Counted from the first letter of the stretch, positions 205-60,592 are shown. The stretch: 64,000 nucleotides of DNA from Deltaproteobacteria bacterium (GCA_016182965.1 JACPFM010000006.1:9160-73159), one strand, 5' to 3'. Notes: generated by a model from the letters alone, not told the origin. Numbers and translations are program-made.

Positions 205-1467
205 ATGGCCGAAGCGTTCACCCGGCGACTGCCCATGCACGAGGAGCGCCGCGCCGACGGGTCGCTCGTGTGCAGACCTCGCTACGCGGTGTGGGAGATC
301 ACGCTGCGATGCGACCAGGCGTGTCGCTTCTGCGGCACCCGCGCCGGGCGCCCGCGCGAGGACGAGCTCTCGACCGCCGAGGCGGTCGACGTCGTGCGCC
401 AGCTCGCCGACATGGGCTGCATGGAGGTCGCGCTGCACGGCGGAGAGACCTACCTGCGAGACGACTGGCTCGACATCGTCCGGGCCATTCGCGATCACGG
501 CATGGACTGCACGATGGTCACCGGTGGCCGCGGCATGACGCAGGAGCGCGCGCGGGCCGCGAAGGAGGCTGGCATCCACGCGGTCAGCGTCTCGATCGAC
601 GGCCTCGACGAGACGCACGACGCGCTCCGCGGCCTGCGGGGGAGCCGCGCGGCCGCGCTGCGCGCGCTGCACGCGCTGAAGGACGTCGGCGTGCGCGTGG
701 GCTGCAACACGCAGCTGAACCAGCGCAACTACCGGGAGCTGCTCCCGCTGGCCGACGAGCTCGCCACGCTCGGGCTCTACGGCTGGCAGGTGCAGCTGAT
801 GGTCCCGATGGGCCGCGCCGCCGACGCGTCGGAGCTATGGCTGCAGCCGTACGATCTGCTCTCGGTGATCCCCGAGGTCGCCGCCGCCCGCGAGCGGTGC
901 GACGCGGTCGGCCTGCGGCTCTGGCCCGGCGACAACATCGGCTACTTCGGCCCCTACGAGCACGTCCTCCGGAAGGCGCGGACGCGCGGCGCGCACTCCG
1001 GCGGGTGCGGCGGCGGGATCATCACCCTCGGCATCGAGGCGAACGGCGACGTGAAGGGCTGCTCGGCGATGGCGACCGAGGGGTTCGTCGCCGGCAACGT
1101 GCGCGACGAGCCGCTCGCCGCGCTGTGGGAGCACGCGCCGGAGCTTCGCTTCACCCGCGACTTCGTGCTCGACGATCTGTGGGGCGCGTGCGCCACCTGT
1201 TACTACGCCGACGTCTGCAAGGGCGGGTGCGTGTGGACGGCATCGGCCCTGCTCGGCAGGCGCGGCAACAACCCGTACTGCCACCACCGCGCGCTCGAGC
1301 TGCTCGCCGCCGGCAAGCGCGAGCGGCTCGAGCTCGTGCACGCGGCCGCCGGCCTGATCCGCGATCGCGCGCGCTTCGAGCTGCACGTCGAGGACGCGCC
1401 GCCCGAGTGGATCGCCTCGTTGACCGTGCCGCGTCAGCTCGCGCCGGTGTCGGGCGGCGGACCGTAG
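205..1467 (+). CDS. Radical SAM enzyme with C-terminal SPASM-like Cys-cluster domain
   Basis: Frame is open from GTG 82; ATG 205 (MAEAF..) is preferred. Radical-SAM motif 'EITLRCDQACRFCG' (CxxxCxxC), 'LHGGETYL', and a C-terminal Cys cluster 'GGCGGG..GDVKGC..CATCYYADVCKGGCVW'. Confidence 0.85.
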   Translation: MAEAFTRRLPMHEERRADGSLVCRPRYAVWEITLRCDQACRFCGTRAGRPREDELSTAEAVDVVRQLADMGCMEVALHGGETYLRDDWLDIVRAIRDHGMDCTMVTGGRGMTQERARAAKEAGIHAVSVSIDGLDETHDALRGLRGSRAAALRALHALKDVGVRVGCNTQLNQRNYRELLPLADELATLGLYGWQVQLMVPMGRAADASELWLQPYDLLSVIPEVAAARERCDAVGLRLWPGDNIGYFGPYEHVLRKARTRGAHSGGCGGGIITLGIEANGDVKGCSAMATEGFVAGNVRDEPLAALWEHAPELRFTRDFVLDDLWGACATCYYADVCKGGCVWTASALLGRRGNNPYCHHRALELLAAGKRERLELVHAAAGLIRDRARFELHVEDAPPEWIASLTVPRQLAPVSGGGP

Positions 1468-1820
1468 GCGCCAGCCATCCCCGAGTCGGCCGGCGTCGTG
1501 TCTTCGGCGCCGGTGTCGGGCGGCGGACCGTACGCGGCGATCGGACCCATGTCGGCGCCGGTGTCGGCGCGGCCGGTGTCGGGCGGCGGACCGTAGGCGG
1601 GTGCCGGCCCGTTGTCGCCGCTCACGTCTGCCGTCGCGTCGGTCACCGGCGAAGGCTCGATCGAGGAGCCGCAGCCGGCCAGCGCGATGCCGAGCCCGAG
1701 GACGACCGCGGCGGACGGCACGAACGGCGCCGTCGATTGCATGGCGGTCCCGCAGAACGGGCAGCGCGGGTCGCGCGGCTTCACGTGCCGCTGGCACGTC
1801 GGGCAGAGCAGAAGGGTCAT
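1434..1820 (-). CDS. Small membrane protein: N-terminal Zn-ribbon, one TM helix, four 'YGPPPDTG' repeats
   Basis: Start 'MTLLLCPTCQRHVKPRDPRCPFCG' (CxxC..CxxC) with GAGG upstream. TM helix 'AAVVLGLGIALAGC'. C-terminal repeats AYGPPPDTG x4. The 3' end overlaps the radical-SAM 3' end by 34 nt. Confidence 0.55.
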   Translation of the reverse strand: MTLLLCPTCQRHVKPRDPRCPFCGTAMQSTAPFVPSAAVVLGLGIALAGCGSSIEPSPVTDATADVSGDNGPAPAYGPPPDTGRADTGADMGPIAAYGPPPDTGAEDTTPADSGMAGAYGPPPDTGAS

Positions 1821-2043
1821 GATGGACCTCGCCTCGTCGCGACGGTCGACCGGCGCGACACGAGCAGCGTCTCGCCGAGCGGGGTCCGCCGTCAAGGACG
1901 GCGGAGACGGCGCACGCGAAGGAGGCCGAGGACGGCCGCCGCGCTACGAATCGCGCGCGTCTCGCAGTACACTCCCCCACACGAACGACGGCGCGAGCGG
2001 GTGGGCGTCTCTCGTGACCCACTCCGAGCATGCGGCAGGACCG

Positions 2044-3243
2044 ATGAGCGCGACCGACGAAGTGAGGAAGACGATCGGCGTCAGGCGCTCGCCCGTCGTG
2101 CGGTGGCTCTTTCGGCTCGCCGTCCCGCCCCTGCCCGTCGCCGCGGTGCTGCTCGGCGCGCGTGCGTGGCGCGCGCGCGCGGCCAGTCGCGTGCCGACCT
2201 TCGTCTCCGAGCCGGCGCGCCGCGCCGACGTGCTGGTGACCGTCACCTCCACCGGGACGCTCGAGGCGGTGACCACCGTCGATGTCGGCGCCGAGGTCAC
2301 CGGCCGCATCCTCAAGCTGAACGTCGGCGAGAACGACAAGGTCAAGAAGGGCCAGGTGCTCGCGCAGATCGACCCCGAGCAGCTCCAGGCCGCGCTCGAT
2401 CAGGCCACCGCGCAGGTCGCCGCCGCCGACGCGTCGGTGCTGCAGGCGAAAGCCACCTTGACCGAGGCGACCATCGTCCTTGATCGCAACAAGAAGCTCC
2501 GCGAGCAGGGCCTGCTCGGCCAGGTCGAGGTCGACACAGCCACCGCCAACAAGGCGCGCGCCGAGGCGACGCTCGCAAGTGCGAAGGCCAACGCGTCGCT
2601 CGCGCGCGCCGCCTACAAGCTCGCGCGCTCGCGCCTCGACAAGACGACCATCATCTCTCCCATCGACGGCGTCGTGCTCTCGCGCTCGGTCGAGCTCGGG
2701 CAGACGGTGACCGCCGGGTTCCAGACGCCGCTCCTCTTCCGGCTCGCCGAGGACCTCACGCGCATGCGGGTGAAGGCCGCGATCGACGAGGCGGACGTCG
2801 GCCGCGTGCGGCCTGGGCTGCCCGCCACCTTCGTGGTCGAGGCCTACCCCGAGCGGAAGTTCCCCTCGACGGTCAGCTCGCTCGGCAACGATCCGAAGAC
2901 GTCGCAGAACGTCGTCACCTACCTCGCGCACCTCGCCGTCGACAACACCGAGAAGCTGCTGCGACCGGGCATGACGTGCACCGCGACGATCGTGTCCGAG
3001 ACCAAGAAGGACGTGCTGGTGGTGCCGAACGCCGCGCTGCGCTTCGTTCCGCCGGCGAAGCCCGGTGAGAAGAAGACCAGCACCGTCGTCGATCCCCGGC
3101 ACCACGTCTGGGTCCTGCAGGGCACGACGCCCGTCTCGATCGAGGTGAAGATCGGCGCGACCGACGGTCTGGTGACCGAGATCGTCTCCGGCGAGGTCAA
3201 GCCCGGCACGGAGGTGCTCGTCGACGTGAAGGAGCTGCCGTGA
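2044..3243 (+). CDS. HlyD/MacA-family periplasmic adaptor (membrane fusion protein)
   Basis: ATG 2044 (MSATDEV..), N-terminal TM helix, lipoyl-like 'VDVGAEVTGRILKLNVGENDKVKKGQVLAQID', coiled-coil region, and beta-barrel 'ISPIDGVVLSRSVELGQTV'. Its stop overlaps the next start (ATGA-type coupling). Confidence 0.85.
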   Translation: MSATDEVRKTIGVRRSPVVRWLFRLAVPPLPVAAVLLGARAWRARAASRVPTFVSEPARRADVLVTVTSTGTLEAVTTVDVGAEVTGRILKLNVGENDKVKKGQVLAQIDPEQLQAALDQATAQVAAADASVLQAKATLTEATIVLDRNKKLREQGLLGQVEVDTATANKARAEATLASAKANASLARAAYKLARSRLDKTTIISPIDGVVLSRSVELGQTVTAGFQTPLLFRLAEDLTRMRVKAAIDEADVGRVRPGLPATFVVEAYPERKFPSTVSSLGNDPKTSQNVVTYLAHLAVDNTEKLLRPGMTCTATIVSETKKDVLVVPNAALRFVPPAKPGEKKTSTVVDPRHHVWVLQGTTPVSIEVKIGATDGLVTEIVSGEVKPGTEVLVDVKELP

Positions 3244-3935
3244 CGGCGCCGCTCGTCGAGCTGCGCGACGTCACCAAGGTCTACGGTCAGGGCGACTCCG
3301 AGGTGCACGCGCTCGCCGGCGCCGACCTGCGCATCGACGACGGCGAGTTCGTCGCGGTGATGGGGGCGAGCGGCTCGGGCAAGTCGACCTGCCTCAACGT
3401 CGTCGGGTGCCTCGATCAACCGACCAGCGGCCACTACCTGTTCCGCGGCGTGGACGTCGGCAGCCTCGATCGCGATCAGCTCGCGCTGCTGCGCCGCCAC
3501 TACCTCGGCTTCGTCTTCCAGAGCTTCAACCTGCTCGCGCGCACCAGCGCCATCGAGAACGTCGAGCTGCCGCTGATCTACCGCCGCGTGCACGCCCGCG
3601 AGCGTCATCGGCTCGCGCTCGCGGCGCTCGCAGAGGTCGGCCTCGCCGATCGGGCGCGCCACACGCCGGCGGAGCTCTCGGGCGGTCAGCAGCAGCGCGT
3701 GGCCATCGCGCGCGCGATCGTCACGAAGCCCCAGATGCTCCTCGCCGACGAGCCGACCGGCAACCTCGACTCGGCGCGCAAGGTCGACATCATGAACCTC
3801 CTCGTGCAGCTCAATCGCGAGCGGAGGATCACCATCGTCATGGTGACGCACGAGCCGGACATGGCGCAGTACACGACGCGCACCGTCCTGTTCAAGGACG
3901 GGCGCGTCGAGCGCGACAGCAAGGCGGGCCCGTGA
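3240..3935 (+). CDS. ABC transporter ATP-binding protein (MacB/LolD type)
   Basis: Walker A 'GASGSGKST', signature 'LSGGQQQRVAIARA', Walker B 'LLADEPTGNLD'. Confidence 0.92.
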   Translation: MTAPLVELRDVTKVYGQGDSEVHALAGADLRIDDGEFVAVMGASGSGKSTCLNVVGCLDQPTSGHYLFRGVDVGSLDRDQLALLRRHYLGFVFQSFNLLARTSAIENVELPLIYRRVHARERHRLALAALAEVGLADRARHTPAELSGGQQQRVAIARAIVTKPQMLLADEPTGNLDSARKVDIMNLLVQLNRERRITIVMVTHEPDMAQYTTRTVLFKDGRVERDSKAGP

Positions 3936-16259: not shown

Positions 16260-16262
16260 TGC

Positions 16263-16393
16263 GAGTCGTCAGTCGTCAGTCGTCAGTCGTCAGTCATGAG
16301 CCGTGAGGGCGAGGCGGTGCCGAAAGCGAGCCGCAGGCGGCGGCCCGGCCCGCTCTCGAACTGACGACTGACGACTGACGACTGACGACCCGA
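16263..16393. repeat. Inverted heptamer arrays (GTCGTCA)x4 / (CTGACGA)x4 flanking a ~60-bp GC-rich spacer
   Basis: Left arm 16263-16300 starts 4 nt after stop 16259. Right arm is 16361-16389. Lies between convergent genes. Predicted ~30-bp stem. Confidence 0.9.
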
Positions 16394-24996: not shown

Positions 24997-25253
24997 ATTT
25001 CGGCCCCGAACTGCTGAACAGGTTCAGCAAATGGGGCGAGGACCGTTCCCGCACGGCCAATGAGCCTCGTGCGCGTTGTTGAACACGTTCAACAACTCCG
25101 AGCGCCCGCGCGAATCCGGAGCGCGACCAGGGGTTCAGCAATTGCTGAACACGTTCAGCGACTCGGAACCCGACGGCGCCGGCCGCAATCGGTAGGTCGC
25201 GCCGCGGCAGCTCTCCGTTTGCTGAACCGGTTCAGGAGTTCGGACCCGAAAAA
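24997..25253. mobile_element. MITE-like non-coding element with ~37-bp terminal inverted repeats and four 20-bp palindromes
   Basis: Left end 'tttcggccccgaactgctgaacaggttcagcaaatgg' versus the reverse complement of the right end 'tttcgggtccgaactcctgaaccggttcagcaaacgg' (32/37). Palindromes TTGCTGAAC-NN-GTTCAGCAA are centred near 25020, 25085, 25151 and 25228. No ORF inside. Confidence 0.55.
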
Positions 25254-25352: not shown

Positions 25353-26642
25353 TCAACCGCGTCGCGCCGGCCCCTGCCGAGCGCGCCTGCCGGGGAAAGC
25401 GATCCGCGCCGCCAACGCGAGGCTGGCCGCCGCGACCAGCAGGAAGATCACTGCAACGCCGATCCACCCCCTTCGCAACGCATCCATCGCGAGGGCGCCG
25501 ACGGACACGGCGACGGCCACGCAGATCGTGGTCAACAGGACACGCGGCAGGGGCTCCCAGATCATCGACGGCATCGGTCGGCGGCGCTCTTCGGTCTCGC
25601 GCTCGCGGTCGATGCGCGCCCGCGAGGGACCGCGGAAGCGGATGGACCACGCGACGGTGTCGCCGCTGCCGGCGCGATAAGGAGCGCCGCGCGGCACGGG
25701 GCGGTACGCACGCGCGTCGGCGGAGGCGCCGGGAATCGACGCGCCGCGGGTGCCGTCGAGCGCGCACTCGCGCGGGCACCGCAGCTCGTCCTCGCCTTCG
25801 AGGCTCGCGCCACACGAGGGGCAGCGCGGCTCGCGCGCGATGACCTCGAGGCGAAGCGCACCGATCCGCTGCTCGTCGCCGCGGCGGAACGGAACGTCGA
25901 CGGAGAGCGGCGCCTCCGCGCGCTCGTCGTCGGCGACGTCGTGCGCATGAACGGCGATCCGCGACCAGACCTCGCTCGGCGCGGTCGCCTCGGCACCGCA
26001 AGCGCACGCGATCTCGGACCCGAACGTCGGATCCAACGCGTGCCCGCAGAACGGGCAGGCGATCCGTAGCGTGATCTCGCCCCACAGCGTCCGCATCGGA
26101 GGTGGCGGCGCGACGTCGACCGTCCGAGCGACCGAGAGGCACGCCCGGAACGTGCGCGGGTCGATGGCCGGCGAGAGGCACGTCGTCGGGCCCCACGGCT
26201 CGACCCTCGCCGGCACCGGAGTCGGGCCGGTCATCGACGCCTCGACGTAGCGGCGCCTGCGCTCGAGGATCGCGGCACGCGCCGCCGGGCGTGACGCCGG
26301 GGCCGCGCCGGGGAGCGTGTCGAGCACGTCTTCCATCCACTCGACGCCCGCGCCGAGCGCTTCGTCGCGCGGCAGCGCCAGCGCAATCCAGAGGACCTCG
26401 TCGTCGACGCCGAGCTCCAGGGGCTGCTCGACGCCATCGACGCTGAAGCCGGGCGCCGCAGCGATCGCGTGTCGCGCCCGGTCGAGCGCGGCCGACGCCC
26501 CGGAGGCCTCGAGCGCAACGGCTCCGAGCACGTGCTCGGCGCCGCTCGCGGCGTCGCGCACGACGAAGACGCGGCCGCGTTCCTCGATCGCGCGCACGTC
26601 GACGAACCGACTCGAGAGGACGCGACCGCTCGGGAGATCCAC
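25353..26642 (-). CDS. Hypothetical protein with Zn-ribbon-like Cys motifs and C-terminal TM helices
   Basis: 'IACPFCGHAL..IACACG', 'RCPSCGASLEGEDELRCPREC'. C-terminal TM helices 'VLLTTICVAVAVSVGALA' and 'IGVAVIFLLVAAASLALA'. High GC3. Follows the kinase gene by 26 nt. Confidence 0.7.
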   Translation of the reverse strand: MDLPSGRVLSSRFVDVRAIEERGRVFVVRDAASGAEHVLGAVALEASGASAALDRARHAIAAAPGFSVDGVEQPLELGVDDEVLWIALALPRDEALGAGVEWMEDVLDTLPGAAPASRPAARAAILERRRRYVEASMTGPTPVPARVEPWGPTTCLSPAIDPRTFRACLSVARTVDVAPPPPMRTLWGEITLRIACPFCGHALDPTFGSEIACACGAEATAPSEVWSRIAVHAHDVADDERAEAPLSVDVPFRRGDEQRIGALRLEVIAREPRCPSCGASLEGEDELRCPRECALDGTRGASIPGASADARAYRPVPRGAPYRAGSGDTVAWSIRFRGPSRARIDRERETEERRRPMPSMIWEPLPRVLLTTICVAVAVSVGALAMDALRRGWIGVAVIFLLVAAASLALAARIAFPGRRARQGPARRG

Positions 26643-26668
26643 GCGCCCACGCTACCCGAACGCCAATG

Positions 26669-41268: not shown

Positions 41269-41745
41269 TCACGCGCCCCGCGTCCGACCGTGCGGCCCTC
41301 GATGCAGGACCTCCGACGCGCGCCGTCGGTGCTGCGCCAACGTGCCCGCGTCGACCTCACGGCGAATCGCCGCGAGCACGTCGTCGAGCGTGACGACGCC
41401 GTGGACGTGCCCCGAGCGGTCGATCACCGGCAGTCGTCGCGCCTCGAAGCTGCGCATCCGGTGGAGCGTCTCGTCGAGGTCCTCGTCGACGGTCACGCTG
41501 GCGAAGCCGTCGCGGACGAGGGTCCCGATCTGCAGTTTCGCCGGATCGGCCCCCTCGTCGGCGAGGACCGAGACGACGAGATCGCGCTCGGTGACGACGC
41601 CGACGGGGCGGACGCCGCCGCCGCCGCGCTCGACGACGATCAGCTGGTCGACGCGGGCGTCGCGCATGCGTCTGGCCGCGGCGGCGACGCTCTCGTCGCC
41701 GTCGATGGTCGCCACCTCGCGTCTGCACAGCTCGCCGACCTTCAT
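41269..41745 (-). CDS. CBS-pair domain protein
   Basis: 'MKVGELCRREVATIDGDESV..GVVTERDLVV..RRLPVIDRSGHVHGVVTLDDVL'. Paralogous to the protein at 45988-46440. Confidence 0.85.
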   Translation of the reverse strand: MKVGELCRREVATIDGDESVAAAARRMRDARVDQLIVVERGGGGVRPVGVVTERDLVVSVLADEGADPAKLQIGTLVRDGFASVTVDEDLDETLHRMRSFEARRLPVIDRSGHVHGVVTLDDVLAAIRREVDAGTLAQHRRRASEVLHRGPHGRTRGA

Positions 41746-45987: not shown

Positions 45988-46440
45988 ATGAAGATCAGCG
46001 AGCTGTGCAGGCGCGAGGTCGCGACCATCGATCCCGGAGAGAGCGTCGTCGCTGCGGCGAAGCGCATGCGCGAGACGCACGTCGGCGATCTCGTCGTCGT
46101 CGATCGGAACGGCGGCGGCGAGCGGCCGCTCGGCATCGTGACCGATCGCGACATCGTCGTCTCGGTCGTCGCCGCCGAGGTGTCCGACCCGGCGAAGCTC
46201 GACGTACGCGACATCGTCCGGGAGGATCTGGTCACCGCGACCGAAGACGAGGATGTCGACGAGGTGCTGCGCCGCATGCGCAGCTTCGCGGTCCGCCGCG
46301 TTCCGGTCGTCGACGCCGCCGGGTTCCTCTGCGGCATCGTCACGCTCGACGACGTGCTCGCCTGGATCGGCGACGACATCGCCGAGGCCACGTCGATCCC
46401 GCGCCGGCAGCGCATGATCGAGTCCCGCGTCCGAGTCTGA
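45988..46440 (+). CDS. CBS-pair domain protein (paralog of 41269-41745)
   Basis: 'MKISELCRREVATIDPGESV..GIVTDRDIVVSV..RRVPVVDAAGFLCGIVTLDDVL'. Confidence 0.85.
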   Translation: MKISELCRREVATIDPGESVVAAAKRMRETHVGDLVVVDRNGGGERPLGIVTDRDIVVSVVAAEVSDPAKLDVRDIVREDLVTATEDEDVDEVLRRMRSFAVRRVPVVDAAGFLCGIVTLDDVLAWIGDDIAEATSIPRRQRMIESRVRV

Positions 46441-50283: not shown

Positions 50284-51170
50284 TGGCCAAGGCCTCCAAG
50301 AACCAGACGATGGACGAGACCGGCGGACGCCGCAGCCTCCTCGGCGAGGCGCTGGTCCACCTCGCGCTCGTCGTGGCGACGGCGGCGGCGCTCTACCCGG
50401 TGCTGTGGGTCATGTCGCTCGCGTTCTCGAGCTCGCAGGCGCCGAGCGCGCGCGTGCTGCCGTGGCCCGAGGCGCCCTCGCTCGATCAGTTCCGCGCCGT
50501 CGTCGGCACGCACGACGCCGCCGGTCGCTGGCTGTTCGGGCGGCAGCTCTTCAACTCGCTTTCGGTGTCGATCGCCACCGCGGTGGTCGGCGTCGGCATC
50601 GCCACGCCGGCCGCCTACGCGCTCGCGCGCTTCCGCTTCCTCGGCAAGGAGCGCGGCGTGTGGCTGCTCATGGCCACGCAGATGTTCCCCGGCGTCGCCA
50701 CGCTGGTGCCGCTCTACCTCATCTTGCAGGGCCTGCACCTGCTCGACTCGCGCGCGGGGCTCGTCCTGGTCTACGCGACGACCTCGGTGCCCTTCTGCGT
50801 CATGCAGCTGCGCTCGTCGTTCGAGGCCATCCCCGTCGACCTCGAGGAGGCGGCGATGGTCGACGGCGCCAGCCGCTTCCAGGCCTTCCGCATGGTGGCG
50901 CTGCCGGCGGCGCGCCCGGCGATCGCCGTGACCGCGCTCTTCGCGTTCATGGGCGCGTGGAACGAGTTCATCCTCGCCGCCACGCTGATGTCGCGCGCCG
51001 AGTCGTTCACCCTGCCGGTGGCCCTGCAGCGCTACGTCGGCGAGCACGGCGCCGCGTGGGGCCACTTCGCGGCCGGCGCGCTGATCGTGTCCATCCCGGT
51101 GATGGCGATCTTCTACCTGGCGCAGCGCCATATCGTGAGCGGGCTGACGTCGGGCGGCGTGAAGGGCTGA
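50283..51170 (+). CDS. malG: Sugar ABC transporter permease (MalG-like)
   Basis: ATG overlaps the previous stop. EAA loop 'EEAAMVDGASRFQAFRMVALPAARPA'. Six TM helices. Confidence 0.85.
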   Translation: MAKASKNQTMDETGGRRSLLGEALVHLALVVATAAALYPVLWVMSLAFSSSQAPSARVLPWPEAPSLDQFRAVVGTHDAAGRWLFGRQLFNSLSVSIATAVVGVGIATPAAYALARFRFLGKERGVWLLMATQMFPGVATLVPLYLILQGLHLLDSRAGLVLVYATTSVPFCVMQLRSSFEAIPVDLEEAAMVDGASRFQAFRMVALPAARPAIAVTALFAFMGAWNEFILAATLMSRAESFTLPVALQRYVGEHGAAWGHFAAGALIVSIPVMAIFYLAQRHIVSGLTSGGVKG

Positions 51171-51172
51171 CG

Positions 51173-51210
51173 GAGTCGTCAGTCGTCAGTCGTCAGTCGT
51201 CAGTCGAGAC
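51173..51210. repeat. Orphan heptamer array (GTCGTCA)x4, no inverted partner
   Basis: Starts 3 nt after stop 51170. Positions 51173-51204 are identical to 16263-16294 (32/32). Confidence 0.9.
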
Positions 51211-52381: not shown

Positions 52382-52422
52382 GGGGCCAAGAGATCCAAGC
52401 GTGCTTGGCGGATTCCCACCGT
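52382..52422 (-). repeat. Hairpin element copy A
   Basis: 'ggggccaagagatccaagcgtgcttggcggattcccaccgt'. About 38/41 identical to copy B. Core hairpin CCAAG-N4-CTTGG. Confidence 0.85.
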
Positions 52423-52672
52423 AAGGCACACAGTGCCATGGCCCTCGCGGCGTTGATTGTCAACGGATGAAACCGGCGGTGGGTCTCCGGCGGAGCCGCC
52501 GTGCTTCGCGCGCTGCGCAGTCGTGTCCGGTGGCGCCTGTTCGTCGCCCAATCGAACCCGAAGGGCGACGTTGACGTCGGCACGCGTCTCGCTCGGTGAC
52601 TGCCTGCGGAGACTGCGTCGCTCCGTCGGTGCGTCGCGCCGCGGCGTTCGCGAAGGCGGGGAGGGCCGTGTC

Positions 52673-53839
52673 ATGAGGACGAGCTCGTCGATTGCGCTGT
52701 TCACCGTGCTCGGGTTCACCTCGTGTGCGCCACGCGACGACGCCGGCGGCCGGCAGAACGCTACCGTGCTCGCTGCGGACTGCTACTCGGTCACGCAGAT
52801 CGACAACCGCAAGTTCGGCGGCGGTGTCGCTCCGCCACACGACATCGACGAGCGCGGAAGGCTGCTGTTCGATCGGTTCATCTGGGACCACGGAGAGCGA
52901 ACCCCGCTGCGGGCGCCGGAGGGCTGGGTCGCGGCCGGCGCGGTCGACTTCAACGAGCGCGGTGACGTCGTCGGCACAGTGCTTCGCGAGCTCGGTGCCG
53001 GTGCTCGGCGCCCCATCGTGTGGTGGCACGACGGCACCGTGGCCCTGTTGCCGGAGGTCGCGAGTCTGAACGAGGTCCTCGAAATCACCGAGCGCGGTCA
53101 CGTGCTCGCGCGCACGTACGACGGCCGCGCGTGGGATGTCGTTCTCTATCGCGACGGCGCCTGGATCGATTTGGGCCGGGGTATCGCCTACGACGTCAAC
53201 GACGACGACGAGGTCGTCCTCGTCGACGATCGCCGCGCGGTCTTGTGGAAGGACGGCGCGCGGATCGATCTCGGGCTCGACGGCGCCTTGACCATGAAGC
53301 TCAACGACCATGGCCAGGTGATCGCCAACGCCGAGCGCGCCGGCCCCGGGACGGAGGCGGCGTTCCTGTGGGAGACCGGGGTCGCGCGGATGCTCCCCGC
53401 GCTTCCATCGCTTGGGGACGCGCAGCAGTGGAGCGCGACCGCCATCAACGAGCGGGGCGACGTCGCCGGTTTGGTGATTCCGTCCAGCACCAGCACGTAC
53501 TTCTCGTATGCAGTGCTATGGCGCGGTGGCGCTCCGACCGTCCTCGCGGACTGGAGCGCGGGCGTGCTCGACCTCAACGACGCCGGTCAGGTGTTCGGCA
53601 ATGCCAGGCGGGGCGACGTGTTGAGACCATTCGTTTGGGATCGCGGAACGTACGTCGAGCTGCCGATGCCGTTCGTCGCACGCTCCGCCACCGGCTACGC
53701 GGACGGTCGCAAGTCGATCAACGAACGCGGCGACGTCTTCTTCAACATGAAGCCGGTCGACGGGATCAGCCACACGTTGCTGTGGAGGAATGACCTCTGC
53801 GGCCGTCCCGAGCCGGAGCCGGAGGAGCCCGGGGAGTGA
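52673..53839 (+). CDS. Lipoprotein with HAF-like extracellular repeats (beta-propeller-like)
   Basis: ATG 52673, lipobox 'LGFTSCA'. About 7 repeats of the pattern 'A..(I/F)NERGDV(V/A)G ... (V/F)(L/W)W..G....L'. Confidence 0.75.
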   Translation: MRTSSSIALFTVLGFTSCAPRDDAGGRQNATVLAADCYSVTQIDNRKFGGGVAPPHDIDERGRLLFDRFIWDHGERTPLRAPEGWVAAGAVDFNERGDVVGTVLRELGAGARRPIVWWHDGTVALLPEVASLNEVLEITERGHVLARTYDGRAWDVVLYRDGAWIDLGRGIAYDVNDDDEVVLVDDRRAVLWKDGARIDLGLDGALTMKLNDHGQVIANAERAGPGTEAAFLWETGVARMLPALPSLGDAQQWSATAINERGDVAGLVIPSSTSTYFSYAVLWRGGAPTVLADWSAGVLDLNDAGQVFGNARRGDVLRPFVWDRGTYVELPMPFVARSATGYADGRKSINERGDVFFNMKPVDGISHTLLWRNDLCGRPEPEPEEPGE

Positions 53840-54044
53840 TCAGCGGAGCTCGTCGAACCAAACGGCGAGGGAACCCCCGTGGAAATGGCTCTCGATTCGA
53901 CCTTCGACCTTCGACCTCGGAACCGCAGACCGGTTCGTGTTCGTGGTCGCGTGCGGTTCCGTCGTCGCCGCCTGCAAGAAGGCAAAGCTCACCGCCACGG
54001 GCCCGCAGCCGGAGCTCGCGCCAATGGTCGAGGACAAGTGAGCG

Positions 54045-55838
54045 TCAGGGGTCGTCCTCCGCGTCGGTCTCGATGAGCGCACGCCGCCCGCCGAGGTTGA
54101 GCCTGCGGTGCTCGTCGAGCGCGCGGTCGTCAGCTTTGCGCGCATCGGGGTCGAACCGGCGCACCTCAAAGCGATTGGCAAGGTAGACGTCGATCCCCGG
54201 AAACGACACGCACGCGTCAGGGACGCCGTCGTCCCAATCAAGCGTGAGCACCGGGTACTCGCCGATGGCATCGGGCTCGCCGACGTAGAGCACCTCGCAC
54301 CGGTTGCCGTCCTGAGGACCGAGGAGGAAGCAGTAGCCGGGCAGGTCTTCAAGGACGCCTTCGAAGAGGTCACCGACCCGCCGTCCCCACTGGCGGAGCG
54401 CCGCCCCGGCGACAGTCAGCGGCTCGAGGCGCGGCTCGTCGAGATCGGCGAGCAGTCCGAGCGAGGCCGCGTCGAAGGCGAGGAAAGCTCGAAGGGCCGG
54501 GGAAAGTGGCCGGTCGCCCGGGAGCTTCAAGCTCGCCAGGACCTCCGGTGCGAGCGCTCGAGGGGGCTGCTCGAGGAGCTCCTCTTTGCGGATTCGTGCG
54601 ATCACGTCTTCCACCAGAGCGACTCCGCGGTGGAGCTTCGGAGCCTTCGCGGCGGCCCCCGCAGCCTTCTTCTTGCGCGCAGCGAGGATCTTCTCGGCCG
54701 ACGCTCCGCCCCAAGGTGAGCCCGTCTTCTTTTTCGCCTTCTCGCCAGTCGCCATCGCTTCGAGCAGGGCCAGGTGCCCCTCGAAGCCGAGCCCGAGGAG
54801 GGCCTTGCTCGCCGAGAGCATCACGGACCGCTCGGGATCGCAGAGCATCTCCAGGAGTGATGCTCGGTCATTCTCCTTCTCGCGGAGTCCCAGGTACGTC
54901 ATCCGCGGGAGGGAGGAAGCGGCGAACCGCTCTGCCTTCGCGCCCCGCATGTCGGCGATCTGCGCGGCCGCCTCGGGCAAGGCCGCGATCGCTGCCGCAC
55001 GCGCGGTGCTCCAGGCCCTGACGACCTTCGCGTCAAAAGGAGAGCGATCCCCTTGCCACTCGGGAGCGAGCTGCGACGACAGCACCGCGTAGTCGTAGCG
55101 GACCCGGCCGAGGCACGCGATCGAATGGGCGCGGTAGACCTCCTCGACGACCGTGAAGGGGTTGAAGTCCTTGACCGCGAGGAAGCGGGCCCAGTCATCG
55201 TCCGAGAGTGCGCCGACGCGATGCATGTCCGGTGAGTACGGCTCCACGGGGCGGCGTGCGCCGGCGACCAGCTCGGTGAGCTCGTGCCTCCACGCGTCCG
55301 GGTAGGCACAGGCCTCCAGGTACGCGTGAATGGCGACCGCTCGCGCCATATCCCCCGTCTTCGCGACAGCGCAGCCCAGCGTGAGGAGCACGTACGGGTT
55401 CGTCGGATCGAAGCGGAGCGCGCGCTCCGCGAAGCGGACGGCCTCCTCGAGTTGCCCGAGGTGAAGGAGATCGTCGGCGATCGCGTCGAGGACCCGGTAG
55501 GCGGACGTCGCGTGCCAGCGCGGGGTATCGCGGAGCGCGGCGGCATGCGCCACGAGCGCGTCCTCCCAGCGGCCCAAGCGAGTGAACAGCGTGCCGACGA
55601 ACCCCTGGCGGGCGATGAACGAGCCCCAACGGTCCACGAGCGAGACGAGCGCCTCGATCGCGCTGGCTGGCGGAGCGGCCCCGGCGAACGCCTCGGCGGC
55701 GACGCGCGGCAGCGCCTCGCGATCGGCCGCATCCGCGGGCGCGAGCGCCTTGCAGAACGCGGCGATCGTGACATCGTTCGACTCGAAGGCTGCGAACGCG
55801 GGCTCGATGACCTGGGCCGTGCTCATGTTCTTCTCCAT
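54045..55838 (-). CDS. TPR-containing protein with C-terminal SUKH (SMI1/KNR4)-like domain; possible orphan immunity protein
   Basis: ATG 55838 (MEKNMSTAQ). TPR 'LGQLEEAVRFAERALRFDPTNPYVLLTLGCAVAKTGDMARAV'. C-terminus 'LSPALRAFLAF..LPGYCFLLGPQDGNRCEVLYVGEPDAIGEYPVLTLDWDDG..SFPGIDVYL' fits the SUKH pattern. Motif-level inference only. Confidence 0.7.
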   Translation of the reverse strand: MEKNMSTAQVIEPAFAAFESNDVTIAAFCKALAPADAADREALPRVAAEAFAGAAPPASAIEALVSLVDRWGSFIARQGFVGTLFTRLGRWEDALVAHAAALRDTPRWHATSAYRVLDAIADDLLHLGQLEEAVRFAERALRFDPTNPYVLLTLGCAVAKTGDMARAVAIHAYLEACAYPDAWRHELTELVAGARRPVEPYSPDMHRVGALSDDDWARFLAVKDFNPFTVVEEVYRAHSIACLGRVRYDYAVLSSQLAPEWQGDRSPFDAKVVRAWSTARAAAIAALPEAAAQIADMRGAKAERFAASSLPRMTYLGLREKENDRASLLEMLCDPERSVMLSASKALLGLGFEGHLALLEAMATGEKAKKKTGSPWGGASAEKILAARKKKAAGAAAKAPKLHRGVALVEDVIARIRKEELLEQPPRALAPEVLASLKLPGDRPLSPALRAFLAFDAASLGLLADLDEPRLEPLTVAGAALRQWGRRVGDLFEGVLEDLPGYCFLLGPQDGNRCEVLYVGEPDAIGEYPVLTLDWDDGVPDACVSFPGIDVYLANRFEVRRFDPDARKADDRALDEHRRLNLGGRRALIETDAEDDP

Positions 55839-55851
55839 CGCCGACGTAGTA

Positions 55852-56073
55852 GATGAAGATCGTGTCAGGATGCGTGCGGTGCTCGGACCTCTGCCCGCGC
55901 GCAAAGCTCGAGAGCCCGGGGCTCTTGCGCGGCAGCCGGAAGCGCCACGCGCCCGCTGGCGTCGCTCCGATGATCTCGGCGCTCGCGTCCCCGCGTAGAG
56001 GCGCGTGTGCCCACTGGTCCGCCGGTACTGCGACGTGGAAACGCGGGTCGAAGTCATCGGGAAGCAGCGGCAT
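55852..56073 (-). pseudogene. Fragment resembling the middle of a DUF2169 (T6SS-associated) domain
   Basis: 'MPLLPDDFDPRFHVAVPADQWAHAPLRGDASAEIIGATPAGAWRFRLPRKSPGL..RSEHRTHPDTIFI' resembles the DUF2169 segment '..FD.RFF.AAP.DQ...YLRGDE...L..L.P.G...F.LPG....LDT..ID'. It lacks both N- and C-terminal parts and is out of frame with the next gene. Confidence 0.4.
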
Positions 56074-56086
56074 CTTCGTCTGCTGC

Positions 56087-56137
56087 GGGGCTAAGAGATC
56101 CAAGCGTCCTTGGCGGATTCCACCGGTCGCGTTTACA
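56087..56137 (-). repeat. Hairpin element copy B
   Basis: 'ggggctaagagatccaagcgtccttggcggattccaccggtcgcgtttaca'. Its proximal end lies 14 nt upstream (minus strand) of ATG 56073. Confidence 0.85.
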
Positions 56138-56268
56138 TAGCAGACCTACGGCGCCTGCTCGGTCGACGCGGACAACCCGTCGCGCCGCTGCCCGGAGTGC
56201 CCCGTTGCTTGCGACCCGCAGGGAAACCCGACCGGGGACACCGGCTGTGGCCTCGGGGGCGAGAGCGT

Positions 56269-56487
56269 CTTGACGAGGGTGCCGTCGACCTTCTTGCCGA
56301 TGCGGCGGCCGAGCGGGTCGACGATGTACTCGATCGTCTTGCCAGGCATGGCCACGCCGAGGAGGTTGCCCCGGCTGTCCCAGGTGTACGTGGTGGTCCG
56401 CGTCACGCCGGAGACCGTCTCGGTCTTCGTCGCGAGAGGCGTGGCCGGGTTCTTCCTGCCGACGCTGCTCGGAGCGACGAAGCAGGT
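56269..56487 (-). pseudogene. RHS/YD-repeat protein fragment
   Basis: 'TETVSGVTRTTTYTWDSRGNLLGVAMPGKTIEYIVDPLGRRIGKKVDGTLVK' is classic YD-repeat periodicity (Y.YD..GNL.. / ..Y.YD.LGRR). No start, core or toxin domain is present, and the flanks are not coding-like. Confidence 0.7.
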
Positions 56488-56759
56488 CACCGGCTCGGAC
56501 GGGCGGCGTTCGCGGTGCTCGCGGGCGTGGCGGCGTGCGCGTTCGCCGCGCTGCGGCTGGTGGTCGTCACCAGCTGCCGCGATAGGCGAGGAGCGCAACG
56601 AAGTGGGCGCCGCGAGCCAACGCGGGTCCGTGAACGCACACCCAGTGTGAGAAGAGCCGTCCACCCTGCAACCGGCGGCCACTCGCTCCTCGTCGCGGAG
56701 TACGCCTCGCCCCTCCCCGAGCCGTTGTTCAACGTGGAGCTCGGCTCTACCCTGGCCCG

Positions 56760-59700
56760 ATGACGGACCGGGGGCGGCTGGTCGGGGTCTTTCTTCTTGG
56801 TGGGGCGCTCGTTTCGACGGCTTGCTCGTCCGATTCGAAAGACGGGCCCCGCGGCACGTTCCTCGAGGTGACCACGTTCGACGTGGCCGAGGCGGGTTGG
56901 GGCGATGCGCCGCTGCCGGTGCACTTCGTCTGGTCGATCAAGGCCGACGGAGGACCGCTCACCTGCAAGCTCGATTGGGACGGTGACGGCACGATCGACA
57001 AGGAGATCTCGGGGTGCCGCCCCGACACGCTCCAGGACGCAGTCGCCGACTTGCCGACGTACACCTTCACGAAGACCGGTGAGCATCACCCCAAGCTCGT
57101 CGTGAGCGACGGCGTTCGCACCGCGGAGAGGACGACGACCGTCTTCGCGAACTTCGTGAAGTACGCGCCGGGCGTGATCCTGCCGGAGAAGACCGAGGGC
57201 TTCGTCGGCGCGGAGACGAGCTGGAAGGCGCCCGCCACGTACGGCGTCGATCCGCCGCACGTCGTCCTCACGTACACGGACGCCTCCAAGGTCCCTGCGA
57301 TCGCACCGGGCACGATCCTCTGGGGCAGCGCGTACGTCATGAAGGTCACGACGGCGACTCCGTCGGGGAAGACGCTCGCCGTCGACGGGGTGAGCGTGCC
57401 CATCACCGACGCGATCCAGGACTGCTTCGTCGGCGCGCGCGATGTCGTCCCCTCGTTCGCCGGCGCGCGCTGCAACGCTGATTCGTGCAAGGACTGGGTC
57501 TACGAGCCCCTGCCGCCCGGCAAGTCGCCGATCGCAGGCGCAGACGCTGGGGCCGACGGAGGTTCGCCCACGTCGTTCAAGCGACTCGGCACGCACGCCG
57601 ATCCGCTCAAGGTCGACTTCGCCGGCAGCTTCTTCGGCCTCAAGGTCGGACTGCCGACGCTCGACATCGACGCGTTCGAGCACTCGTTCCAATTCGGCAT
57701 CGTGGTCAACAAGTTCCTCGTCGAGATCGGCGGCTTCTCGCTCAAGATCGCCGAAGTCGACATCCAGCCGAGCCTCAAATACGAGTTCAACGTCAAGGAG
57801 GCCCTCCGCGACGGGAAGTATGACTTCGGCGCGGCGCCGCTCGGCCCGCCCATCGCGATCGGCCCCATCCCGTTGATCCCGGAGGTCGCGCCCCAGCTCC
57901 GGTACAAGGTCGACGTCAAGGCGGGGGCTTCCGTGGAGTTCAAGGCGCCGATCAAGTTCGCCTACCACGACGGACCCCCGAGCAACCTTGGCTTCGAGTT
58001 CAACCCGCTGCCGACTGCCTTCCTGGGCATCACTAACTGGGAACCGACCCCTGAGGCCGCCGCCGGTCTCTCGGGGAGCCTCTCGTTCGTTCCGAAGTTC
58101 CGGCTGCGCATTCCGGGCATCGGCGGTCCCTACGTCGCGCCCGTCATCTCGGCGACGATCGAGGGGATGGCGAAGATGAAGACGCCCTCGCCTCCGGGCG
58201 CGGCCTGCAGCGATCCCGACTACGTGCCCCCCAGCGGAGGCGTGTTCTGCGGCGCGTTCAAGCTCGGCTTCGGCGGCGAGTGCGACTTCGAGCTCACGTG
58301 GCTCGAGTTCACCAAGAAGAAGCTCAGTTGGAAGACGCTCGAGTTCCAGATCGCGGAGATCGTGCTCGAGAAATGCAAGGGCTTCTGCGGAGGGACGACC
58401 GTCGACGCAGGTTCCGACGCGGCCGACGCAGCACCGGATGGCGATGCGACGGCAGGCGACGCCGTTGCCAGTGATACCAGCGTGGGCGACTCGTCGATCC
58501 CCGACGCCCCGGCAGAAGGAGGATCCGATTCGGGCACGCTCGCCGACATCACGGCCGACTGCTTCGAAGGGGCGACCGTGTCGGTCTGCGGCACGAGCTT
58601 CTACCCCGGGAGCACGATGACGCTGGTCAACGTCACGGAGGTGCCCGGCGGCATCTCGAGCTATGCGGCGGTCCTCGGCAAGCCCGAGGTCGGCGACGAG
58701 AGCTCCAACGTCCCCAGCAGCGCGAAGGTGTTCACCTTCTTCGACACCAGCAGCCTGTGGGGCGTCCCCGGATTCCCGACGCCGATCGTCGGGCGCGACG
58801 TCAATCGAGGGGGCCGATCGAACCTCATCGCGGTCTGGAAGAACTCGGCCGGCGTCTTCGAGTGGGTCACCAACATCACCGGCGGTCACTACAGCTTCAC
58901 CGGCGGCCTTCCTGTCTACCGTCAGTTCCAGTTCATCCACGAGTCGAGCTCCGCCCCCACGAGCTCTCCCTTGTCGTCGTTCGGCGCGCGGAAGGACTTC
59001 TTCCGAAGCTACAAGAGCTCCGAAGGGACGGTCTGGACCGAGCTCGACCCGCCGACCGACCTCTCGTGTGCGCCCGTCATCTCGTTTCCGAAGGACTGCT
59101 TCCAGTACGCGGAGCTGTCGATGGCCCCGATCGCGATCGACCTCGGCGCCGTTCCGGCCGGTTCGAGCTCCGCGGACGCGACCTTCGACCTGTCGAACGA
59201 CGGGAAGGACCCGAGCAGCGCGATCACGCTCTCGCTGACGGGCGCCGATGCGTCGCTCTTCTCGATCTCCGGAGGATCGTGCATGTCGGGGGTGACGACG
59301 CTCGCGGCGGGCGGGTCGTGCGCCATCAAGATGAAGTTCAACCCGCTCTCGACGACGAGCGTCGGTACGAAGACCGCGACGCTGAAGGCGACGGCCTCGA
59401 CGGGCGGAACCGTGCACGCAACCGTGACGGGCAAGGTCTCCTCCGCCGGGCTCGCGCTCTCGCCGACGCCGAAGGACTTCGGGTTCCTGCTCGCTGGCGC
59501 GAGCACGCCGGACACGACGTTCACCGTGACGAACACCGGGGGGTCGCCGAGCAGCGCGATCACGCTGTCGCTGACCGGCGCCGATGCGTCGCAGTTCACC
59601 CTCACGGGCGGCACCTGCGCCTCCGGCACCACCACGCTCGCACCGTCCGCGAGCTGCACCGTGACCGCCCGGTTCGCGCCGGGCAGCACGGCGATCGCCG

Positions 59701-60113
59701 GATCCAAGTCGGCGACGCTGTCGGCCACCGCGACGACGGGCGGGACGGCGAGCGCTGCGCTGAGCGGCGTGGTCCAGGCACCGGCGGCGCTCACCATCAC
59801 GCCGGCAGGGAAGGTCTACGGGTCGGTATCTACGACCGGCGCCGGCACCGACAGCCTCTTCACCGTGAAGAACGGCGTCGGCGGCGTCACGAGCGGAACG
59901 CTCGCGATCGCGATCGGCGGTACCCACCCCTCCGACTTCGCCATCACCGGCGGCACCTGCGTCCCGGGCACGACCAAGCTCGCGGGCGGCGCGAGCTGCA
60001 GCGTCATCGTCAGGTTCAAGCCGACATCGACGGGGGCGAAATCCGCATCGCTCGGCGTCGTGGCGACACCCGGCGGCACCCCGGCCGCCTCGCTGACGGG
60101 CACGGGCATCTGA
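56760..60113 (+). CDS. Large surface lipoprotein: PKD-like domain, ~450-aa unknown domain, Asp/Ala-rich linker, second unknown domain, three Ig-like 'choice-of-anchor D'-type repeats
   Basis: Lipobox 'LVSTACSS'. PKD-like 'PLPVHFVWS..DWDGDGTID..YTFTKTGEHHPKLVVSDG'. Three C-terminal ~95-aa repeats ('FG.V..GSSS.ATF.LSNDG..PSSAITLSLTGADAS.F...GG.C..G.T.LA.G.SC'). Confidence 0.85.
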   Translation: MTDRGRLVGVFLLGGALVSTACSSDSKDGPRGTFLEVTTFDVAEAGWGDAPLPVHFVWSIKADGGPLTCKLDWDGDGTIDKEISGCRPDTLQDAVADLPTYTFTKTGEHHPKLVVSDGVRTAERTTTVFANFVKYAPGVILPEKTEGFVGAETSWKAPATYGVDPPHVVLTYTDASKVPAIAPGTILWGSAYVMKVTTATPSGKTLAVDGVSVPITDAIQDCFVGARDVVPSFAGARCNADSCKDWVYEPLPPGKSPIAGADAGADGGSPTSFKRLGTHADPLKVDFAGSFFGLKVGLPTLDIDAFEHSFQFGIVVNKFLVEIGGFSLKIAEVDIQPSLKYEFNVKEALRDGKYDFGAAPLGPPIAIGPIPLIPEVAPQLRYKVDVKAGASVEFKAPIKFAYHDGPPSNLGFEFNPLPTAFLGITNWEPTPEAAAGLSGSLSFVPKFRLRIPGIGGPYVAPVISATIEGMAKMKTPSPPGAACSDPDYVPPSGGVFCGAFKLGFGGECDFELTWLEFTKKKLSWKTLEFQIAEIVLEKCKGFCGGTTVDAGSDAADAAPDGDATAGDAVASDTSVGDSSIPDAPAEGGSDSGTLADITADCFEGATVSVCGTSFYPGSTMTLVNVTEVPGGISSYAAVLGKPEVGDESSNVPSSAKVFTFFDTSSLWGVPGFPTPIVGRDVNRGGRSNLIAVWKNSAGVFEWVTNITGGHYSFTGGLPVYRQFQFIHESSSAPTSSPLSSFGARKDFFRSYKSSEGTVWTELDPPTDLSCAPVISFPKDCFQYAELSMAPIAIDLGAVPAGSSSADATFDLSNDGKDPSSAITLSLTGADASLFSISGGSCMSGVTTLAAGGSCAIKMKFNPLSTTSVGTKTATLKATASTGGTVHATVTGKVSSAGLALSPTPKDFGFLLAGASTPDTTFTVTNTGGSPSSAITLSLTGADASQFTLTGGTCASGTTTLAPSASCTVTARFAPGSTAIAGSKSATLSATATTGGTASAALSGVVQAPAALTITPAGKVYGSVSTTGAGTDSLFTVKNGVGGVTSGTLAIAIGGTHPSDFAITGGTCVPGTTKLAGGASCSVIVRFKPTSTGAKSASLGVVATPGGTPAASLTGTGI

Positions 60114-60135
60114 TCCAGCTCGCGCGAGAAGGCTC

Positions 60136-60513
60136 TCAACCGTCGTCGAGCACGTCGGCAACTGCGTCGCCCGTGGTCGCGTCCGACGCGACGTCGGCGC
60201 GTTCCAACGCACCGGCGTCGTCGTCGTCGATTCCAGGCGCATACCGGCAGAGCCGGTGCGAGTCCGCGCAGGAGATCTGACGGTACGGCCACTTGCAGGT
60301 GGGCACGCCGTGCTCGCACACCGGCGGCTGCAGCACGTCCAGATCGCAGCAGCAGACGCCTTTCGCGTCGCACGCCGCATCGATGCCGCCCTCGGATCGG
60401 ACGTCGGCAGCGTCGCCCTCGGGCGGCGCGTCGGCGGCGCCATCGCTGAGGACGTGCGGGGCGCACGCCGCCGGGCACCCCACGACCGTGAGCGCGAAGA
60501 GCAACGGCCGCAT
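60136..60513 (-). CDS. Cys-rich acidic lipoprotein
   Basis: ATG 60513, lipobox 'LTVVGCPA', includes 'CDAKGVCCCDLDVLQPPVCEHGVPTCKW'. Convergent with the large lipoprotein; 22 bp separate the two stop codons. Confidence 0.65.
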   Translation of the reverse strand: MRPLLFALTVVGCPAACAPHVLSDGAADAPPEGDAADVRSEGGIDAACDAKGVCCCDLDVLQPPVCEHGVPTCKWPYRQISCADSHRLCRYAPGIDDDDAGALERADVASDATTGDAVADVLDDG

Positions 60514-60540
60514 GGCATCGAGTGTACCGGATGGCGACGA

Positions 60541-60592
60541 GGGGGCTAAGAGAGCCAAGCGTCCTTGGGGATCCACCGTTCGCGTTTGCATA
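60541..60592 (-). repeat. Hairpin element copy C
   Basis: 'gggggctaagagagccaagcgtccttggggatccaccgttcgcgtttgcata'. About 47/52 identical to copy B. Lies 27 nt upstream (minus strand) of ATG 60513. Confidence 0.85.

Follow-up and report, generated by a model that had tools for sequence, protein, structure and literature searches.

Three direct copies of a short non-coding element, a possible recombination joint, in a strain-variable gene patch of a metagenome-assembled deltaproteobacterial genome

Short non-coding sequences which recur within one genome have been described in several settings, and two of these are of particular relevance here. Putative mobile promoters are stretches with ≥ 80% identity over ≥ 50 nt which lie upstream of non-paralogous genes, in a defining window of −150 to −50; neither an associated mobile element nor a mechanism of spread has been recognised for them (Matus-Garcia, Nijveen and van Passel 2012; PMC3575422). 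The rAID arrays of Bacteroidales combine a tyrosine recombinase with co-oriented short orphan immunity genes and conserved intergenic motifs (PMC12247911). Here we describe a 41–53 bp repeat which occurs in three copies (A, B and C) in a 64,000-nucleotide stretch of DNA from Deltaproteobacteria bacterium (GCA_016182965.1, JACPFM010000006.1:9160-73159), hereafter the window, and we compare this locus to these and other known systems.

The three copies lie in the same, direct orientation, 3705 and 4455 bp apart, and are non-coding (Table 1). A preliminary description of this region had proposed a three-copy direct repeat, and both a direct reading of the sequence and a repeat search, which placed the three copies in one family, agreed with it. 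The minus-strand sequence of copy B, TATGTAAACGCGACCGGTGGAATCCGCCAAGGACGCTTGGATCTCTTAGCCCC, and the 53-nt family consensus, TATGYAAACGCGAMCGGTGGAATCCGCCAAGGACGCTTGGATCTCTTAGCCCC, agree, and copies A and C have three private changes each. The conserved core of the element is a 27-nt block (CCAAGSACGCTTGGMTCTCTTRGCCCC on the minus strand) which is of constant length, contains no indels and has 3 substitutions overall, and inside which all three copies contain the dyad CCAAG-N4-CTTGG. The 14 nt adjoining this block carry three indels across the copies. In addition to its deletions relative to copy B, copy C has one further core substitution and two distal substitutions, and copy A has only the proximal 41 nt in common with B and C. 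When 1-kb neighbourhoods were compared by blastn, copies B and C aligned over 53 columns (90.6% identity, E 3e-12), A and B over 40 columns (92.5% identity, E 3e-9) and A and C over 41 columns (85% identity, E 3e-6); beyond these 40–53 aligned columns there was no significant similarity in the flanks of the copies. No mosaic pattern was found among the three copies. The element is richer in A + T than its 71% G + C genome.

The 27-mer CCAAGSACGCTTGGMTCTCTTRGCCCC matched exactly three times in the window, compared to 0.00 matches expected from shuffles, and there was no fourth site at ≤ 3 mismatches. No additional, partial, half or inverted copy was found in the 64 kb by Hamming distance (≤ 8/27 mismatches), by 16-mer sub-blocks on both strands (≤ 3 mismatches) or by an nhmmer profile, which confirms the earlier statement that the window holds no further copy. 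The dyad had no other exact occurrence in the 64 kb, and its sole other match, with one mismatch, lies within a choice-of-anchor-D gene. With three copies within 8.2 kb and zero in the other 56 kb, the family is locally clustered.

All copies share one border, the plus-strand GGGGC at 52382, 56087 and 60542, immediately beyond which similarity was random in all three pairwise comparisons. The inner border differs, being reached after 41 nt in copy A and after 51–53 nt in copies C and B. Two features point to a joint at the level of DNA: in each of the three comparisons similarity stops at one common base with unrelated flanks beyond, and the shared border at copy B is the point at which a DUF2169 gene is cut. 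This gene lacks its first ~200 residues, and the break is at the GGGGC end of copy B. Taken from its ATG, the DUF2169 open reading frame (ORF) aligned to the profile from position 206 (54.5 bits); with in-frame read-through from the element (LDLLAPQQTKMPLL...), the alignment started at Q7, profile position 202, and scored 58.4 bits. As DUF2169 homology runs 4 residues upstream of it, the ATG which follows copy B encodes a Met in the interior of a truncated gene. The DNA on the other side of copy B does not correspond to the half which DUF2169 lacks, and copy B is therefore not a simple 53-bp insertion.

These observations bear on the earlier claim that each copy lies just upstream of a start codon. 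The ATG distances which had been given were right, at 12 nt for A, 13 nt for B and 23 and 28 nt for C. The claim itself holds for copy C, which alone is followed by an intact gene, and fails for copy B, where the ATG lies inside DUF2169; at copy A it leads into a coding-like relic, and this ATG is not shown to be a start because the relic has no detectable homologue. For annotation it should be noted that an ATG near a conserved upstream element is no proof of a start codon, as the ATG inside the truncated DUF2169 gene illustrates.

The window originates from a metagenome-assembled genome labelled “Deltaproteobacteria bacterium” (proteins MBI2388451-MBI2388456, locus tags HYV09_02435-02460; contig of 73,313 bp) with a G + C content of ~71%, the gene content of which (Ser/Thr kinases, an FHA sigma-54 activator and many lipoproteins) fits a myxobacterium-like organism. 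In the Logan assemblies of SRR12113421 and SRR12113422 every copy was present with both flanks at 100% identity: A in contig L019, B in L016 and C in L005, L013 and L014. As independent contigs of two runs reproduce the copies and their flanks, we could rule out that the repeat is an assembly artefact. The Logan contigs break at 51181–51195, 53898–53916 and 56234–56236, with overlaps of just 3–19 nt, and none of them breaks at a copy of the element. The 51.2-kb break was present in both runs and the other two in contigs of one run; these breaks could be due to low coverage or to strain variants.

Over ~9 kb around the copies, gene relics alternate with orphan lipoprotein genes in a patchwork which varies between strains. 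One Logan contig from another run (L015) was 94.3% identical to the window over 1393 bp of ABC-transporter genes and unrelated to it from window position 51161 onward, and it carries no copy of the element. In positions 1394–3659 of this contig the sequence switches, exactly at the end of the permease gene, to a 200-amino-acid (aa) Cys-rich lipoprotein gene on the minus strand and a 395-aa lipoprotein gene on the plus strand. The G + C content of the patch (53–60 kb) is slightly below that of the rest of the window (0.67–0.70 vs 0.70–0.76). It is this lower G + C content, together with the divergence of L015 from 51161, which places the copies in an accessory, relic-rich patch. Such a placement had been proposed beforehand and was borne out, as the patch is missing at this position in a 94%-identical relative; of the orthologous locus in a close relative, the left edge alone was recovered. 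From the sequence comparison, the site downstream of the ABC operon appears to be a hot spot for the swapping of lipoprotein genes.

We also looked for the element outside of the window. An exact scan with the degenerate 25-nt pattern CCAAGNNNNCTTGGNTCTCTTNGCC, which would miss diverged relatives, returned 4 loci in 185,579 representative genomes and 7 in JGI metagenomes. All of these came from unrelated organisms of low G + C content and had no similarity outside the pattern, and they were rejected as chance matches. Two looser patterns gave 0 and 2 loci in viral contigs, the latter scored weakly by nhmmer over the pattern only and likewise taken as chance, and when plasmids and phages were searched with copy B by blastn there was no match. 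Because the lineage is poorly sampled and an exact pattern misses diverged relatives, this absence is weak evidence.

On the strength of the shared border and the cut DUF2169 gene, we tentatively favour a reading in which the element is quite possibly the constant end of a DNA segment that recombines or moves. Segments would have been inserted or recombined successively at one hot spot in this lineage, each having the element as its fixed end. A recombinase or transposase encoded elsewhere would recognise the 27-nt block with its dyad, and DNA would be joined at the GGGGC end, so that the sequence beyond that end would be unrelated between copies. The segment may also supply an outward-reading promoter, since the GGGGC end faces minus-strand coding sequence in 3/3 copies. 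Att-like sites, cassette boundaries and one-ended transposon termini are all forms which such a joint could take. The direct orientation, the tight clustering and the variable, relic-filled setting of the copies all fit the fixed end of a mobile segment, and we also counted in its favour the surrounding relics (DUF2169, YD repeat and TGS), the slightly lower G + C content of the patch and the failure of the RNA and coding explanations considered below. If the element is such a joint, it marks a hot spot for the swapping of lipoprotein and antagonism-related genes and provides a handle for finding the enzyme.

Several observations weigh against a recombining or mobile end. A scan of genes which covered part of the window, and none of the other ~9 kb of the source contig, revealed no integrase, transposase, recombinase or tRNA; there was no integrase in 52.4–60.5 kb, and ARAGORN found no tRNA or tmRNA in the window. 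There was no inverted partner and no terminal inverted repeat (16-mer sub-blocks, both strands, 64 kb), and no target-site duplication or common direct repeat was seen when the flanks of the three copies were read by eye. No copy was found outside the source organism in the databases scanned, so that mobility is putative, and the 7–15% divergence between copies, indels included, implies that recombination has not recently renewed them. Truncation is provable at the junction of copy B only, with the relic at A having no homologue and the gene downstream of C being intact. Each unit between copies has genes on both strands and other breakpoints of relics exist away from the element, two features which also qualify the earlier suggestion that the element partitions the patch into cassettes, itself a possible arrangement. 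The evidence comprises three copies in one metagenome-assembled genome, and the reach of the finding is accordingly small.

A more specific proposal, drawn by analogy and in our judgement improbable, is that of a previously undescribed integron- or rAID-like cassette-capture system in an uncultured Myxococcota-like lineage, for which the element would be the recombination site and also an outward promoter. In such a system a trans-acting recombinase would line up cassettes of several genes each, head to tail, at a single hot spot, and these cassettes would include antagonism-related fragments and orphan lipoprotein genes.

The main rival, somewhat less likely in our judgement, is that the element is a reused (“mobile”) cis-regulatory module, a promoter and/or operator with a short leader, copies of which came to lie in three divergent intergenic regions. 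The 27-nt block would then be bound, via the dyad, by a sigma factor or dimeric regulator, and the targets would be either the adjoining minus-strand sequence or the plus-strand genes for the HAF-repeat lipoprotein, the choice-of-anchor-D lipoprotein and the glycosyltransferase, 250–730 nt away. The location of all copies between a minus-strand coding stretch and a plus-strand gene and the A + T richness of the element speak for this idea, as does the B–C pair, which at 90.6% over 53 nt and with unrelated downstream genes reaches the identity and length set for putative mobile promoters (PMC3575422). There is also an ECF sigma gene 2 kb away, the upstream region of which has just a 7-mer in common with the element. 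By eye, we could make out GGAATCC-N16-TCTCTTA on the minus strand, which is similar to the sigma-E type consensus GGAACTT-N16-TCTGA, and TTGGCG/TTGGGG-N18-TACATA/CATATT/CACAGT on the plus strand. However, a consensus scan found no sigma-70-like site anywhere in 51–64 kb, and a sigma-54 promoter was rejected because its GG-to-GC spacing is 2 nt short (GG-N8-GC is present where GG-N10-GC is required). Copy C, the sole copy with an intact gene directly downstream, has both of its deletions in the putative −35 and spacer, 2/3 of the minus-strand “targets” are relics, the dyad is absent in exact form from the rest of the 64 kb, and there is no obvious reason for copies of a promoter to end at the same base three times. 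It should be noted that a joint and a promoter are compatible, as the ends of mobile DNA often carry outward promoters; those of insertion sequences often do so. If the element is a reused promoter, it would be one more case of regulatory DNA which has been copied independently of genes. We consider it unlikely that the copies are functionless leftovers, either of a local duplication which has decayed save for one short stretch or as solo terminal remnants, retained by chance, of an insertion sequence which is now absent. The presence of three copies only, all within one decaying patch and with relics as neighbours, and the failure to find the element elsewhere in the databases scanned would suit this origin, but a decayed segmental duplication predicts graded flanks rather than an identity of 85–92% which drops to random at one identical base, and the 27-nt block has 3 substitutions and no indel next to 14 nt with three indels.

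The remaining explanations are more difficult to reconcile with the sequence. The preliminary description had offered a small structured RNA, and a 5′ untranslated region riboregulator based on the hairpin belongs to the same category; every copy does have a 5-bp stem and a 4-nt loop, and in B and C the sequence contains GGA motifs in and beside the loop. However, the fold energies of 101–111-nt windows were indistinguishable from those of shuffles on either strand (z −0.64 to +0.97), all 5 pairs of the stem are invariant across copies without covariation and hence uninformative on structure, and the indels are located in the flanking segment. A comparison to Rfam, which had been suggested as a check, left the element unrecognised, as none of the copies was matched at E ≤ 10. 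The RNA proposal was thus not upheld, and we regard such a function as very unlikely. The original call of the element as non-coding, on the other hand, stands: the 1–2 nt indels between copies break every frame and in each frame just one of the three substitutions is synonymous, so a coding explanation was rejected. An intrinsic terminator, with a G + C-rich stem and a T-run behind it, was also rejected, as the copies were not reported by the terminator scan and 4 of the 8 positions of the tail ATCTCTTA are T. The least plausible candidates, to which we attach hardly any weight, are integron-type attC sites bounding gene cassettes. As would be expected of these, the direct repeats separate unrelated gene content, and copy A lies 144 nt downstream of the Uma2 gene in an arrangement resembling an ORF-attC cassette. 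However, there is no R''/R' pair, GTTTACA/GTTTGCA (T at position 4) do not match GTTRRRY and there is no RYYYAAC partner; instead of an extended imperfect palindrome (57–141 nt) there is the 5-bp stem, with a fold z of about 0. At 41–53 nt the copies are also shorter than attC sites usually are, the window genes scanned included no integrase, and the units are multi-gene with genes on both strands.

Genes around the copies were called from the codon-position G + C pattern and from Pfam and NCBIfam. In plus-strand order, the ABC sugar-transporter genes (ending at 51170) are followed by Uma2 (+), a short relic (−) and copy A; then by a HAF-repeat lipoprotein gene (+), a TPR protein gene (−), the DUF2169 relic (−) and copy B; then by a YD-repeat relic ORF (−), a choice-of-anchor-D lipoprotein gene (+), a Cys-rich lipoprotein gene (−) and copy C; and finally by a TGS relic (+), a glycosyltransferase gene (+) and the ECF sigma gene (−). 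By this gene order, the copies all occupy divergent non-coding gaps, with minus-strand coding sequence on one side and a plus-strand gene on the other. The DUF2169 relic does not end in its own stop codon; its frame continues across the TPR start for another ~210 codons, as far as 55195, and the relic is therefore cut at both ends. The TPR gene itself probably starts at its second ATG. The TGS relic, between copy C and the glycosyltransferase gene, was called as a 53-aa gene by the Logan gene caller. The relic beside copy A had no homologue among 1.84 billion representatives, the lipoprotein beside copy C had none in the database searched, and no word-sharing relative of the DUF2169 relic was found. 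The best homologue of the glycosyltransferase beside copy C was 62% identical and lay in a different context with no common gene order.

Table 1 Element copies and adjoining features, with positions counted from the first nucleotide of the window.
Feature	Position	Strand	Details
Copy A	52382–52422	−	41 nt; 27-nt block 52382–52408; similarity to B/C ends at 52421/52422
Copy B	56087–56139	−	53 nt; nearest to family consensus; 27-nt block 56087–56113
Copy C	60542–60592	−	51 nt; two 1-nt deletions vs B; 27-nt block 60542–60568
Coding-like relic, ~25 codons	52307–52381	−	Abuts copy A; G + C by codon position: GC3 100%, GC1 0.64, GC2 0.44
TPR-containing gene, intact	54045–55838	−	Downstream of DUF2169 relic; likely true start 55826, GGAG 6 nt upstream
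DUF2169 relic	55852–56085	−	Pfam profile positions 202–282 of 294, E 1e-15; begins within ~1 codon of the GGGGC end of B; ATG 56073 internal
YD/Rhs-repeat relic ORF	56146–56490	−	Repeat match 56338–56403 above NCBIfam cut-off; stop codon 7 nt before copy B on minus strand
Cys-rich lipoprotein gene, intact, 125 aa	60136–60513	−	Starts 28 nt after copy C
TGS-domain relic, 56 codons	60650–60820	+	Last ~50 residues of YchF-like GTPase, E 2e-10; 58 nt from other end of copy C
Stretch without counterpart at this position in 94%-identical relative	51161 onward, given up to the window end (64000)		Comparison to Logan contig L015

Three further features of the window lie outside this patch. At 24998–25251, ~260 bp of non-coding sequence beside a minus-strand ORF (25353–26651) contain five copies of a 14–16 bp palindrome, (C/T)TGAAC-N4-GTTCA(G/A), examples of which are CTGAACAGGTTCAG, TTGAACACGTTCAA and CTGAACCGGTTCAG; judged by its sequence, this array looks like a set of operator sites for one dimeric regulator. 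Between an alpha-amylase gene (+) and an Endonuclease_NS gene (−), at 16262–16392, four tandem GTCGTCA heptamers are separated by a 65-nt spacer from four TGACGAC heptamers, giving 33-nt arms which are 97% complementary and which probably form a long bidirectional terminator hairpin made of heptamer repeats. Finally, a 426-nt inverted repeat (41320–41745 and 45988–46413, 74% complementarity) flanks a pyruvate phosphate dikinase gene and probably represents two diverged paralogous coding segments in opposite orientation, from a CBS/phosphoribosyltransferase gene region.

When the element is compared to known systems, it is like putative mobile promoters in that very similar non-coding stretches lie upstream of non-paralogous genes in one genome (PMC3575422), and the B–C pair reaches the identity and length by which these are defined. 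It differs from them in its location at −12 to −80 from the ATG, in that 2/3 of its downstream “genes” are relics and in that the pairs involving copy A reach just 40–41 nt. As with the att repeats of tandemly integrated genomic islands, short direct repeats bound strain-variable DNA at one hot spot; unlike in such islands, no integrase was found in the blocks, a tRNA or tmRNA target is missing, the blocks measure just 3.7 and 4.4 kb and the repeats are 7–15% diverged. The resemblance to rAID arrays and to integron-less attC clusters lies in a conserved intergenic motif which separates orphan or relic antagonism-related genes, here the DUF2169 and YD-repeat relics, whereas the absence of a recombinase among the genes found, the presence of genes on both strands, the different phylum and the lack of sequence similarity set the locus apart from rAID arrays.

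The ends of insertion sequences and of Tn3-type transposons offer a further comparison. Terminal repeats of the Tn3 family are ~38 bp long, with GGGG outermost and TAAG innermost, and form an inverted pair with a transposase. Like these ends, the element has a sharp outer end which starts with GGGG, abuts interrupted genes and faces the adjoining coding sequence; unlike them, it has no inverted partner and no transposase was found, all copies being the same end in the same orientation. TAAG is moreover found in copy A only, where it arises at the point of divergence from the other copies. Repetitive extragenic palindromic (REP) sequences, REPINs and miniature inverted-repeat transposable elements (MITEs; e.g. 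Correia elements) are likewise short, dispersed intergenic repeats which are able to carry promoters, but the element differs from these in its 5-bp stem, its lack of inverted pairs, terminal inverted repeats and target duplication and its three clustered copies; REP and REPIN sequences are long imperfect palindromes, often arranged as inverted doublets, which occur in many copies with a RAYT transposase. The element therefore lacks what defines attC sites, MITEs, REP/REPINs, Tn3-type repeats, integrase-bearing island att sites and rAID arrays, and it can be placed just in a loose, descriptive grouping, that of short dispersed intergenic repeats and putative mobile promoters.

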